Below, piece by piece: positions 8,414 to 20,220 of a stretch of 64,000 bases of DNA (its first letter is position 1; every line of letters starts with the position of its first letter). This DNA comes from Escherichia coli (GTDB lineage: Bacteria; Pseudomonadota; Gammaproteobacteria; Enterobacterales; Enterobacteriaceae), in the NCBI RefSeq assembly GCF_002854065.1, contig NZ_CP024147.1. The stretch is one strand, 5' to 3'. The notes under the pieces were generated by a model. The model saw only the letters and a program-made list of their open reading frames with translations, was not told where the DNA came from and did no database searches. A program made the position numbers and the translations under genes.

Positions 8414-9652
8414 ATGAAAGCATTGACTTATCACGGCCCACATCACGTTCAGGTAGAAAATGTTCCCGATCCGGGCATTGAACAGGCAGATGATATTATT
8501 CTGCGTATTACGGCAACGGCGATCTGTGGCTCTGACCTCCATCTTTATCGAGGCAAAATACCCCAGGTTAAACATGGCGATATTTTTGGTCATGAATTTA
8601 TGGGGGAAGTAGTTGAAACCGGGAAGGACGTAAAAAATTTGCAAAAAGGCGACCGGGTGGTAATTCCGTTCGTCATTGCTTGTGGCGACTGTTTTTTCTG
8701 TCGAATGCAGCAATATGCCGCCTGCGAAAATACCAATGCGGGTAAAGGCGCTGCGCTCAATAAAAAACAGATACCTGCTCCCGCGGCATTGTTTGGTTAT
8801 AGTCACCTGTATGGTGGCGTTCCTGGCGGGCAGGCGGAATATGTCCGCGTCCCTAAAGGGAATGTGGGGCCGTTTAAAGTACCGCCTTTGCTTTCAGATG
8901 ATAAAGCGCTTTTCCTTTCTGATATTCTGCCAACGGCATGGCAGGCAGCAAAAAATGCGCAGATCCAACAAGGTTCAAGCGTTGCAGTCTATGGTGCCGG
9001 TCCTGTGGGATTGTTGACAATCGCCTGTGCACGGTTGCTCGGTGCGGAACAGATTTTTGTTGTTGATCATCATCCCTACCGCTTGCGTTTCGCCGCCGAC
9101 CGCTACGGCGCGATCCCGATTAATTTTGATGAAGATAGCGATCCGGCACAGTCAATTATTGAACAAACGGCAGGTCACCGTGGCGTGGATGCAGTAATAG
9201 ACGCCGTCGGTTTTGAAGCGAAAGGCAGCACCACGGAAACGGTGCTGACTAACCTGAAACTGGAGGGCAGCAGCGGTAAAGCGTTGCGCCAGTGTATTGC
9301 GGCGGTCAGGCGTGGCGGCATTGTTAGCGTACCGGGCGTCTACGCTGGATTTATTCACGGTTTCCTGTTTGGCGACGCCTTTGATAAAGGGTTGACGTTT
9401 AAAATGGGACAGACCCACGTTCACGCATGGCTGGGAGAATTATTACCGTTAATTGAGAAAGGATTACTGAAACCAGAAGAAATTGTTACCCACTATATGC
9501 CGTTTGAAGAGGCCGCCCGGGGATATGAGATTTTCGAAAAACGTGAAGAGGAGTGCCGTAAGGTGATTCTGGTACCCGGTGCACAAAGCGCAGAGGCGGC
9601 GCAGAAGGCGGTTTCAGGTCTGGTGAATGCGATGCCGGGGGGAACAATATGA
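8414..9652 (+). CDS. ybdR: Zn-dependent alcohol-dehydrogenase-family oxidoreductase
   Basis: 412-aa ORF with the [12 protein letters not shown] zinc-ADH signature and a GAGPVG NAD-binding motif. Confidence 0.9.
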
Positions 9653-17123: not shown

Positions 17124-18182
17124 TCATGCGGGGGTCTTTTGACGAGCTGCCGCGTCCTGGCGGGAGTGCTCAAGCAGGTTCTGCAAATAATGCAGCGTGA
17201 CTGCAGGGACCAGCGGCGCGATAGCCGTGAGATCGTTTTTCGCCAGCAGTTGACGTACCCGGGAAGCGGATATCGGCATCTCCTGGTAACGCAGCCGCTC
17301 AATTTCAACCAGTTCGATGGGCGGTGCGGAGATAGTCGGCGTTTCCAGCCAGTAGCGCATATCCTGGTTGTACTGGGCGGTAACGCGACAAAAGGGTTCA
17401 GTACCGACAAAGCGGTGAGTTACACCCAGCGCGGGAGCGAGGTACTGACGGAAAATCTTCAGATCAATTTCGGTGTAACAATGGTTAATGACGCTCTGTT
17501 CTTTAATGAAGTAGCAAGGGAACGTAGCGCGGGAGATGATGTATTCGGAGCCGCGATGCACAGTCAGGCGTGGAATATCGGCGGTGCCTTTTAACACCAG
17601 ATCCAGCCGGTCTTCATAGGGGAAGCGTGAAGAATCTTCTTTGACTAAAAACAGATGCAACCAGTCGCACTGTGCCGCAGCTTGTTGAATCAGATAACGG
17701 TGACCCTTCGTAAAGGGATTGGCGTTCATCACAATGCAGCCAATCTTGTTCCCGGGATGACGAAATTTTTTCAGCGATTCGGCATAGCGTTTCAATCGCG
17801 TGGCGCTGTTTTCCATCAGCACCATCACGCCTGGTACGCTGGTCAACGTGGAAAAACCGCACTGGCGGAACAGCGCCTCGTATTCGGTTTTGGTATAAAT
17901 AAACAGATGCGTGCTGTGCCGCTCATAGGCGAGGTTTATCAGTTCAGTGGCTAATGTCAGCGCCAGTCCTTCACCGCGAACGGATTCACTGATAGCAACG
18001 CATTTAATAATATTTCCGGCAATTCCACCGCACGCGATAAGCTTTTCATCGCGGGTTACGGTAATAAATACTTCGACTGTGGTGTCAACGCTCAAATCAT
18101 TTTCATGCAGGAATTGGGCGATTTTCGCCATTTTTTTATTTTCTGAACGTTTTACGCGGGTGAAAATATCATTGCCGAACAT
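17124..18182 (-). CDS. citC: [Citrate (pro-3S)-lyase] ligase
   Basis: ORF 17124..18269; start set at the ATG at 18182 (MFGNDIFTRVKRSENKK) for 352 aa. Confidence 0.9.
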   Translation of the reverse strand: MFGNDIFTRVKRSENKKMAKIAQFLHENDLSVDTTVEVFITVTRDEKLIACGGIAGNIIKCVAISESVRGEGLALTLATELINLAYERHSTHLFIYTKTEYEALFRQCGFSTLTSVPGVMVLMENSATRLKRYAESLKKFRHPGNKIGCIVMNANPFTKGHRYLIQQAAAQCDWLHLFLVKEDSSRFPYEDRLDLVLKGTADIPRLTVHRGSEYIISRATFPCYFIKEQSVINHCYTEIDLKIFRQYLAPALGVTHRFVGTEPFCRVTAQYNQDMRYWLETPTISAPPIELVEIERLRYQEMPISASRVRQLLAKNDLTAIAPLVPAVTLHYLQNLLEHSRQDAAARQKTPA

Positions 18183-18269
18183 AATAAATAGTATCCTGAA
18201 GGTGCATGTTGTTATCGATTTGCAACGAATGTTGTTCAATGTTGCAAACTGATAACCTTTTATTTTCAC

Positions 18270-18561
18270 TTGGGAGAAAGGGGGGTGATCGAGGTATATC
18301 TTTTTCTCCTTTCGCTATACATCCTAAGGAGTATTTTGGCGTGAAATTTTGATTTATTTCACATAGAGTTAGTGGTTTTTTATTTATTTAATAGTTTTAA
18401 GTTTTTTAATTAATGTAATTACGAAATGACCCGCAGGTTTAATTGATTTAATTGATTTAATGAATGAAATTTGCCACGATTATAATTAATATCTATGTAT
18501 TTTGATTCAACATTTTAATTACATCCGTCAAAGAGGATCGGGACAACCCGCAAGGAAAACA
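18270..18561. promoter_or_regulatory. Divergent citC / dpiB control region, AT-rich with direct and inverted repeats
   Basis: About 290 bp of very AT-rich intergenic DNA containing three tandem 9-mers (TTAATTGAT, TTAATTGAT, TTAATGAAT at 18439-18465) and an inverted repeat GTGAAAT..ATTTCAC at 18341-18362. Confidence 0.5.
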
Positions 18562-20220
18562 ATGTTGCAGCTTAACGAGAATAAACAGTTTGCATTTTTC
18601 CAAAGACTGGCATTTCCGCTGCGTATCTTTTTGCTGATTCTGGTGTTCTCAATATTTGTCATTGCAGCCCTGGCGCAATATTTTACGGCCAGTTTTGAGG
18701 ACTATTTAACGCTTCATGTACGCGACATGGCAATGAATCAGGCGAAAATTATTGCTTCTAATGACAGTATCATCAGCGCAGTAAAAACGCGTGACTACAA
18801 ACGGCTGGCGACCATCGCTAACAAATTACAAAGAGATACCGATTTTGATTATGTGGTGATTGGCGACCGGCACTCGATCCGCCTTTACCATCCTAATCCG
18901 GAGAAAATTGGTTATCCTATGCAGTTCACCAAACAGGGCGCGCTGGAGAAAGGGGAGAGCTACTTCATTACCGGGAAAGGGTCAATGGGTATGGCGATGC
19001 GCGCCAAAACGCCAATCTTTGATGACGATGGAAAAGTCATCGGCGTGGTGTCGATTGGCTACCTGGTGAGTAAAATCGATAGCTGGCGGGCTGAGTTTTT
19101 ATTACCGATGGCAGGTGTGTTTGTCGTGCTGTTAGGGATTCTGATGTTGCTGTCGTGGTTCCTGGCCGCGCATATCCGTCGGCAGATGATGGGCATGGAG
19201 CCAAAGCAAATCGCACGCGTGGTCCGTCAGCAAGAGGCGCTGTTTAGTTCGGTTTATGAAGGGCTGATTGCGGTGGATCCGCACGGTTACATTACCGCCA
19301 TCAATCGTAACGCAAGAAAGATGCTGGGGCTGAGTTCCCCCGGACGGCAATGGTTGGGTAAACCCATTGCTGAAGTGGTCAGGCCCGCCGATTTCTTTAC
19401 CGAACAGATTGATGAAAAACGTCAGGATGTGGTGGCTAACTTTAACGGTCTGAGCGTTATTGCCAATCGGGAAGCTATTCGTTCAGGTGATGATTTGCTG
19501 GGGGCCATTATCAGCTTTCGTAGTAAAGACGAAATTTCCACCCTCAATGCGCAACTGACGCAAATAAAACAATACGTCGAGAGCCTTCGTACATTGCGAC
19601 ACGAGCATCTCAATTGGATGTCGACGCTCAATGGTCTGTTGCAGATGAAAGAGTATGATCGCGTGCTGGCGATGGTGCAGGGGGAGTCTCAGGCCCAGCA
19701 ACAGCTTATTGACAGTCTGCGCGAGGCGTTTGCCGATCGCCAGGTGGCGGGGCTGCTTTTTGGTAAAGTGCAGCGCGCCCGCGAACTGGGGCTAAAAATG
19801 ATCATCGTCCCCGGTAGCCAGCTTTCGCAACTGCCGCCAGGACTGGATAGCACCGAGTTTGCCGCCATTGTTGGCAATTTACTTGATAACGCCTTCGAAG
19901 CCAGCCTGCGTAGCGATGAAGGAAACAAGATCGTTGAATTATTCCTCAGCGATGAAGGCGATGATGTGGTGATTGAAGTCACCGATCAGGGCTGCGGCGT
20001 TCCAGAGTCTCTACGAGACAAAATATTTGAGCAGGGGGTCAGTACGCGTGCTGACGAGCCCGGTGAACATGGCATTGGGTTGTACTTGATTGCCAGCTAC
20101 GTAACGCGCTGCGGTGGTGTTATCACTCTCGAAGATAATGATCCCTGCGGTACCTTATTTTCAATCTATATTCCGAAAGTGAAACCTAATGACAGCTCCA
20201 TTAACCCTATTGATCGTTGA
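18562..20220 (+). CDS. dpiB: Citrate-sensing histidine kinase
   Basis: ORF 18502..20220; start set at MLQLNENKQF for 552 aa; two TM segments, PAS and HATPase regions. Confidence 0.92.
   Translation: MLQLNENKQFAFFQRLAFPLRIFLLILVFSIFVIAALAQYFTASFEDYLTLHVRDMAMNQAKIIASNDSIISAVKTRDYKRLATIANKLQRDTDFDYVVIGDRHSIRLYHPNPEKIGYPMQFTKQGALEKGESYFITGKGSMGMAMRAKTPIFDDDGKVIGVVSIGYLVSKIDSWRAEFLLPMAGVFVVLLGILMLLSWFLAAHIRRQMMGMEPKQIARVVRQQEALFSSVYEGLIAVDPHGYITAINRNARKMLGLSSPGRQWLGKPIAEVVRPADFFTEQIDEKRQDVVANFNGLSVIANREAIRSGDDLLGAIISFRSKDEISTLNAQLTQIKQYVESLRTLRHEHLNWMSTLNGLLQMKEYDRVLAMVQGESQAQQQLIDSLREAFADRQVAGLLFGKVQRARELGLKMIIVPGSQLSQLPPGLDSTEFAAIVGNLLDNAFEASLRSDEGNKIVELFLSDEGDDVVIEVTDQGCGVPESLRDKIFEQGVSTRADEPGEHGIGLYLIASYVTRCGGVITLEDNDPCGTLFSIYIPKVKPNDSSINPIDR

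Follow-up and report, generated by a model that had tools for sequence, protein, structure and literature searches.

Two arrays of 9-bp TTTAAT units in the divergent citC/dpiB control region of Escherichia coli

Introduction

The system closest to the one described here is the same locus as it stands in EcoCyc and RegulonDB, where the divergent E. coli genes citC and dpiBA are curated with a transcription start at 652172 and with listed sites for DpiA, DcuR, NarL, ArcA, FNR and CRP. The curation gives two DcuR sites and one NarL site for the dpiBA start at 652172, and a second validated dpiBA start with three DpiA sites and sites for ArcA, NarL, FNR and CRP, with NarL at the dpiBA region graded as "low evidence" (PMC7567609, Supplementary file 1). 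The preprint version of the Reg-Seq study treats the dpiBA region as a "gold standard" promoter, and under the conditions of Reg-Seq itself no transcription factor site was curated for dpiBA (PMC7567609). In Citrobacter rodentium, a truncation of the citC promoter named DTR305, which was designed from the EcoCyc DpiA sites, abolishes induction by citrate (PMC12405535). A preliminary description of the sequence analysed here, made from the letters alone, had seen in it a divergent citC/dpiB region under the control of a response regulator; that general reading is right, and it was already documented by the curation (PMC7567609) and by the truncation (PMC12405535).

A related arrangement is the citS-citC spacer of Klebsiella pneumoniae, which is likewise a divergent citrate-fermentation region where the CitB-family regulator binds A+T-rich targets and CRP binds as well (Meyer 1997 and 2001, as cited in PMC2735749), but it belongs to a paralogous cluster (citS-oadGAB-citAB) and has another gene partner. 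Genomic SELEX of CitB has also been reported (Yamamoto 2008/2009).

More broadly, the citC/dpiB region shares with the direct-repeat operators of the CitB family the presence of short AT-rich direct repeats upstream of operons for carboxylate metabolism. Examples of such operators are that of DcuR at dcuB and the TTATT(A/T)AA repeats of MaeR in Lactobacillus. The region upstream of E. coli dcuB, unlike citC/dpiB, has no 9-bp-phased TTTAA array, and the unit sequence and spacing described below may be specific to the DpiA/CitB branch.

The locus and the extent of its control region

All coordinates refer to the window, that is, the whole stretch of 64,000 nucleotides of E. coli DNA (contig NZ_CP024147.1) that was analysed. 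Of 5426 complete E. coli genomes, 5419 have a match to a 451-nt query around the site, which in every case lies between citC and dpiB. The sequence at issue is the control region from which citC and dpiB (citA) of E. coli diverge. On the minus strand citC (17124–18182; RefSeq; Pfam Citrate_ly_lig) encodes the [citrate (pro-3S)-lyase] ligase of 352 aa, and on the plus strand dpiB (citA; 18562–20220) encodes the sensor kinase; the RefSeq annotation mapped to the window puts the two starts at 18182 and 18562, respectively.

The control region had been given as roughly 290 bp, from 18270 to 18561. Position 18270 is the GTG of the longest citC open reading frame (381 aa), a form that belongs to older EHEC annotation and was used in PMC4683798. 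Across 60 loci from Escherichia to Yersinia and Providencia, homology among CitC proteins begins at or near the methionine of the 352-aa form (at residue 1 in most loci and at residues 2–6 in the Yersinia loci), and in the spacer alignment the indels between genera within 18183–18290 are not multiples of three. RefSeq and these two observations place the non-coding region at 18183–18561 (379 bp, 31% GC), and the shorter extent is thus wrong. The region was also called strikingly AT-rich, and so it is: GC content is 0.22–0.27 per 100-nt window over 18300–18500, against about 0.5 in the flanking genes. Throughout Enterobacterales the divergent citC/dpiB spacers measure about 320–560 bp, most of them 330–440 bp, with a GC content of 21–42%.

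Little else is encoded in the spacer. An Rfam scan of 18000–18800 gave only a meaningless tmRNA fragment (E 0.91) and no known RNA element, and the small open reading frames are nog1 and chance ORFs only. The overlapping ORF nog1 (17947–18252, plus strand, 101 aa, GTG start), which has been described for EHEC (PMC4683798), runs antisense to citC and ends inside the intergenic region. At 18211–18256 there is an inverted repeat with 16-nt arms (repeat pair I1) followed by a T-run on the plus strand; the hairpin has a predicted energy of −16.4 kcal/mol with z-scores of −3.2 on the plus strand and −4.3 on the minus strand, and outside Escherichia its conservation is limited to the right arm. It looks like a terminator of nog1, and it would also lie within the presumed citC leader.

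The tandem 9-mers of module D

The three tandem 9-mers that were noted at 18439–18465 are present: TTAATTGAT stands at 18439–18447 and again at 18448–18456, and TTAATGAAT at 18457–18465. Tandem Repeats Finder reports 18438–18461 with period 9, 2.7 copies and 100% matches. Among 5000 dinucleotide-preserving shuffles of the intergenic region two gave such a perfectly periodic tract of 24 nt, among 5000 shuffles of the AT-rich core of that region one did, and the 64-kb window holds no other perfectly periodic tract of this length; the tandem 9-mers are real and non-random. We refer to the element as module D (TTTAATTGA twice, followed by TTTAATGAA; 18438–18465, plus strand). Relative to the proximal dpiB start it occupies −61 to −34, and it is a putative site for a CitB-family regulator, namely DpiA~P and/or DcuR~P.

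The allele in the window is about 98% identical to that of K-12 but is a non-K-12 allele. Its first unit is the perfect 9-mer whereas K-12 has TTAAGTGAT at this place, and it reads TATAAT where K-12 reads CATAAT, with a GATC site lost in the window allele.

Conservation was followed in an alignment of Escherichia species, E. albertii, two Salmonella subspecies and ten Citrobacter, in which 38% of the columns are invariant overall and the invariant columns are concentrated in blocks. The second unit (18448–18456) is invariant at 9 of 9 columns in Escherichia, Salmonella and Citrobacter, the first (18439–18447) at 3 of 9 and the third (18457–18465) at 4 of 9. The ancestral form of module D, GGTTTTwAT followed by TTGTTTAAT and TGATTTAAT, is kept in Salmonella, Citrobacter, Hafnia, Buttiauxella and Atlantibacter, and in Providencia the first two units are kept and the third has diverged. 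The middle unit became TGATTTAAT in Escherichia; two neighbouring units are identical in this genus, and hence a perfect tandem repeat was seen in the preliminary description. A literature search with the repeat sequence itself returned no match.

Module C and the 9-bp unit grammar

The tandem 9-mers are the dpiB-proximal one of two 9-bp-phased TTTAAT arrays. A single array had been described; the second and more deeply conserved one, module C (18378–18418, plus strand), was missed. It is composed of four to five head-to-tail units of 9 bp, GTTTTTTAT TTATTTAAT AGTTTTAAG TTTTTTAAT TAATGTAAT, and it occupies −121 to −81 relative to the dpiB start at 18499; it is a putative operator array for DpiA~P. 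The repeat finder reports a direct repeat of 34 nt (D1) between 18387–18420 and 18438–18471 with 79% identity. The pattern TTTAA-N4-TTTAA-N4-TTTAA with at most one mismatch occurs four times in 64 kb, where 0.01 is expected, all four within 18378–18460, and the signal is limited to period 9 and to the plus strand.

By its sequence, module D is a paralogue of module C that has the same orientation and lies about 43 bp further downstream; the 43-bp register was read off the aligned 9-mer rows of E. coli and Salmonella and was not computed. The spacer between the modules (18419–18437) has 2 of 19 columns invariant; its sequence varies and its length is kept. The core of module C, GGTTTTAAGTTTTTTAATTA (18391–18413), has 19 of 23 columns invariant, and GGTTTTwAnnTTnTTAATTA is found in every Enterobacterales genus examined, about 166–270 nt (mostly about 185–235 nt) from the citC ATG. 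Written as 9-mers, module C reads across genera xxxxTTAAT, GGTTTTAAk, TTnnTTAAT and TAnTnTAAT. The units were compared from aligned 9-mer rows; an automatic position matrix was discarded because its anchor mis-registered Salmonella and Citrobacter.

Outside the locus, the regions upstream of mdh, exuT and exuR, which we take to be DpiA SELEX targets, and of dcuB, presumably a DcuR target, have no strict 9-bp array (best 9–12 of 15 positions). A putative DcuR motif at dcuB (−359 to −400) brought no corroboration, as that region has GTTAATTAAC and no 9-bp array. More distantly, CP049331.1 (40% GC) carries a DpiA/CitB homologue with 46% identity within a citC / citX / oadGAB-citAB-citDEFXG cluster, and in 16.7 kb of it the 9-bp TTTAA x3 pattern is matched at six positions with a score of at least 13 of 15. 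Four of the six lie in the spacers preceding the oad and citD operons (citX/oadG and citB-citD), where one array includes TTAATGGTTTTTAG, which closely resembles module C; the remaining two are a single site at the oadG-oadA junction that matches on either strand, and other periods give 0–1 matches there. A second distant cit locus (L095/L096, 60% GC) has no 9-bp arrays. The 9-bp unit grammar is a minor new point and a modest one.

The inverted repeat and the citC promoter

The preliminary description had also pointed to an inverted repeat, GTGAAAT-N8-ATTTCAC, at 18341–18362. The repeat is there (pair I6; arms at 18341–18347 and 18356–18362), but it does not stand as a functional unit. About 0.9–1.2 pairs of 7-nt inverted repeats are expected at this composition and 49% of the shuffles of the AT-rich core equal it, while 3 of 7 columns are invariant in the left arm and 7 of 7 in the right; a functional palindromic operator was therefore rejected, as the symmetry is not beyond chance and one arm alone is conserved. 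The inverted repeat is an Escherichia-specific by-product that overlaps a CRP/FNR-type site.

The conserved block beneath it is TTTTGATTTATTTCACA, a CRP/FNR-type TTGA-N6-TCACA element. This block B covers 18344–18365 with its core at 18349–18363 (centre 18355.5), and within it AAATTTTGATTTATTTCACA (18344–18363) has 18 of 20 columns invariant and is kept in Hafnia, Buttiauxella, Edwardsiella and Yersinia. TTTGA-tttatt-TCACA (18348–18363) agrees with the CRP core TGTGA-N6-TCACA at 9 of 10 positions and with the FNR consensus TTGAT-N4-ATCAA at 8 of 10, the left half being FNR-like (TTGA) and the right half CRP-like (TCACA). The CRP/FNR-type pattern has a single match in the window where 0.79 is expected by chance, and is not rare alone.

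Closer to citC lies block A, TACATCCTAAGGAGTA (18318–18333), which is NarL 7-2-7-like and contains TAGGAT on the minus strand (18326 to 18321). TACATC[C/G]TAAGGAGTATT (18318–18336) has 16 of 19 columns invariant. The element TACATCC-TA-AGGAGTA agrees at 12 of 14 positions with the NarL 7-2-7 site (inverted TACYYMT with a 2-bp gap), a pattern that is itself not rare, as 2.76 such matches are expected per window; Escherichia, Salmonella, Citrobacter and Hafnia all keep it. TA[G/C][G/C]AT is found at a fixed offset of 26 nt from block B as far as Yersinia. We retained the NarL and CRP/FNR patterns because of their conservation and the curated literature, and not for their rarity.

From this arrangement, TAGGAT (18326 to 18321) is the putative citC −10 element with a transcription start near 18314. 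A scan for consensus sigma-70 promoters returned none, which is expected for activator-dependent promoters and so is uninformative. A start at about 18314 would put TTGA-N6-TCACA at −41.5, and class II CRP/FNR promoters, with their site at −41.5, have the same centre as block B if the conserved TAnnAT hexamer is the citC −10. The NarL 7-2-7-like element would then lie over the citC −10, which would explain repression by nitrate, and module C would lie at about −64 to −104 from the citC start, from where it could mediate the activation of citC by citrate.

The dpiB promoter and leader

The proximal dpiBA transcription start is experimentally validated (MG1655 652172; PMC7567609, Supplementary file 1, citing Mandin & Gottesman 2009) and by coordinate mapping corresponds to 18499 of the window, plus strand. 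Its −10 region, as predicted from the sequence, is TATAAT at 18481–18486 (CATAAT in K-12) followed by TAATAT at 18487–18492. Module D adjoins the weak −35 of this start, and a regulator bound there would directly recruit RNA polymerase. The automatic calls of Reg-Seq at −37 to −14 are activator-type, meaning that mutations lower expression, in LB, zinc and xylose/arabinose, and repressor-type in heat shock and anaerobic growth (PMC7567609). We read this signal, which is not labelled RNA polymerase in the table, as promoter-like; an assignment of transcription factor sites from these per-condition calls for dpiBA was rejected, as they are too weak and unlabelled.

Downstream of the start, block F, AACATTTTAATTACA (18510–18524), occupies +12 to +26 of the dpiB leader, and its pattern AACATTTT[A/T]ATTACA has 12 of 15 columns invariant. 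As an ArcA site it was rejected, since on the minus strand the direct repeat resembling an ArcA site occurs about as often as chance predicts (50 found, 45.8 expected). The next segment of the 5' UTR, CCGTCAAAGAGGA (18525–18537, plus strand), is a predicted pairing site for the small RNA ChiX (RybC), with perfect complementarity over 13 nt to nucleotides 45–57 of ChiX and a duplex energy of −30.4 kcal/mol. Regulation of dpiB by ChiX was reportedly demonstrated by Mandin and Gottesman in 2009.

Variation in the number of units

Module D has three units in more than 99.6% of about 5370 E. coli genomes, and variants make up about 0.3%. Four units occur in about 15–16 genomes, among them 12 of serogroup O145 together with L26, 23CRST011 and RMDEC465. 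Other O145:H28 genomes have three units, so the number varies within the lineage, and the four-unit allele of RMDEC465 is an independent event because it has the K-12-type first unit. Two units were found once among the roughly 5370 genomes, in strain 2-331.

The tract is able to slip, but too seldom for a high-frequency switch. Like contingency-type promoter repeats it is a perfect 9-bp tandem repeat that varies in copy number between strains, whereas compared with the classical contingency loci the tract is far shorter, only 2–4 units are found and the variants are rare. A phase-variable (contingency) locus was accordingly rejected, as changes in repeat number are too rare, and no evidence of phase-variable expression of the 9-mer tract was found.

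Regulators of the two arrays

Overall, the best explanation is that both arrays probably serve as operators to which phosphorylated CitB-family response regulators bind. The genes depend on the regulator according to the literature, the units are AT-rich and share one orientation, they are conserved in orthologous loci, and they recur in CP049331.1. DpiA itself has a Response_reg domain and a DpiA-like HTH_64 domain. The published truncation can also be placed on this map, since its primer DTR305_Fwd reads as TTTGATTTATTTCACAAAGAGTTAGATG in reverse complement and stops precisely at the left-hand end of the module C array. Blocks A and B are retained in the construct, and everything dpiB-ward of about 18376 in window coordinates is removed; the deletion thus covers both modules and all that follows up to dpiB, is not specific to module D, and concerns the C. 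rodentium orthologue and not E. coli.

Mechanistically, DpiB would sense citrate under anaerobic conditions and give rise to DpiA~P, which would bind the arrays, and regulators of the CitB family, with their HTH_64 domain, would bind head-to-tail on successive 9-bp units. Array-bound DpiA~P would activate the citC promoter leftward and dpiBA rightward, the latter as autoregulation, and DcuR~P would use one or more sites in the same stretch to set the level of DpiAB. Which protein contacts which unit we infer from this arrangement.

It is possible, if doubtful, that the labour is divided, with module D serving as the DcuR~P site or sites before dpiBA in a cascade from DcuSR to DpiAB, and DpiA~P binding module C and its immediate surroundings alone, in which case the repeats first noticed at this locus are not DpiA sites. 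A DcuR site is said to precede the citAB operon in an abstract by Scheu from 2012, which we count for this division. It also agrees with the curation, which assigns two DcuR sites to the proximal start, both within the Reg-Seq span of −115 to +45 (18384–18544) that contains module D, and which attributes the three DpiA sites to the other dpiBA start (PMC7567609). Modules C and D, on the other hand, are plainly paralogous and share one unit grammar, so that the same or closely related binding proteins are expected for both. The lack of such an array at the dcuB promoter, presumably a target of DcuR, also speaks against DcuR at module D.

Quite improbable, in our judgement, is an action of the AT-rich arrays mainly through DNA structure or nucleoid proteins (silencing by H-NS/StpA, Fis/IHF, or UP-element-like contacts of the alpha subunit) in place of binding by a sequence-specific regulator. 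A GC content of 22–27% over about 200 bp is in its favour, as is the finding that the citC/dpiB spacer is bound in vitro by sigma-S RNA polymerase with no other factor present (PMC5493296). The conservation of the arrays, however, is base-specific and block-wise with variable AT-rich spacers, unlike a constraint on composition only; a period of 9 bp does not phase A-tracts with the helical repeat; deletion of the arrays abolishes an induction that is specific to citrate (PMC12405535); and no paper on H-NS binding at citC/dpiB was identified at the level of titles and abstracts.

It is very improbable that the perfect tandem duplication is functionless in itself, a neutral microsatellite produced by replication slippage: the poor conservation of units 1 and 3 outside Escherichia (3/9 and 4/9), the range from two to four copies among E. 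coli and the perfect identity of units 1 and 2, specific to Escherichia, would agree with it, but it has against it the exact number of three units in more than 99.6% of 5370 genomes, the invariance of unit 2 across three genera, and a three-unit 9-bp TTTAAT phasing that is older than Escherichia.

Significance

The citC/dpiB region is a curated and experimentally studied one, and its interpretation is already established knowledge. The transcription factors acting on the region and the loss of induction upon deletion of the arrays come from the literature; the identity of the locus, the repeat statistics, the conservation, the copy-number variation and the geometry relative to the published start come from the present analysis. 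Beyond bookkeeping the significance is small and the additions are modest. The boundary of the non-coding region is corrected, and the inverted repeat turns out not to be a functional unit. The model of two 9-bp TTTAAT arrays could help in choosing mutations for the DpiA and DcuR operators and in designing citrate biosensors, and the rare natural allelic series of two, three and four units is ready-made test material.

A reading that goes further, and that we consider rather unlikely, is that the array of TTTAAT units represents a previously undescribed recognition grammar of the DpiA/CitB type (HTH_64) with slippage-prone alleles that retune the level of DpiBA. Under this reading the grammar would be conserved from Providencia to Escherichia, possibly into Vibrionaceae-like genomes, and a point change in Escherichia would have made two adjacent units identical and so created a slippage-prone tract. 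If it is true, the alleles with two and four units would change how many operator units there are and in which 9-bp register the dpiB and citC promoters stand to each other, and such heritable retuning of DpiBA could extend to citrate fermentation and to the responses to beta-lactam stress that are reported to depend on DpiBA.

The dpiB promoter and leader

The 5' untranslated region of dpiB carries CCGTCAAAGAGGA at 18525-18537, which is perfectly complementary to nucleotides 45-57 of the ChiX sRNA (duplex -30.4 kcal/mol), and the predicted pairing extends over 13 nt in the window allele, with A at 18537, versus 12 nt in K-12, which has C there. The leader also contains block F (18510-18524; +12 to +26 from the published dpiBA transcription start at 18499), which reads AACATTTT[A/T]ATTACA and is conserved in 12 of its 15 columns. 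Its minus strand is ArcA-like, yet this pattern occurs at chance frequency and an ArcA site was rejected; alternatively, block F may be an AU-rich element related to Hfq or to an sRNA. At 18476-18486 the window allele is ACGATTATAAT, with a perfect TATAAT and without GATC. ACGATC is kept in K-12, E. albertii, Salmonella, and Citrobacter as a conserved Dam site adjoining the dpiB -10 region, and GATC is also missing in some other Escherichia lineages (E. whittamii and MOD1-EC7003). This Dam site is possibly a methylation-sensitive element.

The dimer site and the citC side

The curated regulators of the citC/dpiB region include FNR as well as CRP. The conserved dimer site at 18349-18363 is asymmetric in all genera examined: its left half, TTGA, is of the FNR type, and its right half, TCACA, of the CRP type. 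This asymmetry itself appears to be under selection.

Toward citC, nog1, a 101-aa overlapping ORF antisense to this gene (PMC4683798), is intact in the window on the plus strand (17947-18252), its 3' end lying within the spacer. At 18211-18256 a hairpin (-16.4 kcal/mol) precedes a T-run, in a stretch to 18266, and the arrangement resembles a terminator for nog1. The left arm of this hairpin is restricted to Escherichia, the same restriction as reported for nog1. Separately, TTGATAAC-N-TTTT-N-TTTTC (18249-18268) is common to Escherichia, Salmonella, and Citrobacter, and would fall in the presumed citC leader.

Related arrays and disrupted spacers

In a distant cit/oad cluster (CP049331.1), 9-bp-phased TTTAA(T) arrays are found in the citX/oadG and citB-citD spacers (2715-2765 and 8760-8800). 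The latter array is preceded by an intrinsic-terminator-like hairpin and includes TTAATGGTTTTTAG, which is nearly the core of E. coli repeat module C (18378-18418).

In E. coli LB19b (NZ_CM196076, 2233-3000), IS1A stands in place of 232 bp of spacer, equivalent to 18253-18484, a replacement that takes out blocks A (18318-18333) and B (18344-18365) together with repeat modules C and D (18438-18465). Coverage of the spacer query falls below 80% in approximately 48 of 5419 genomes, and these may carry disruptions like that of LB19b.
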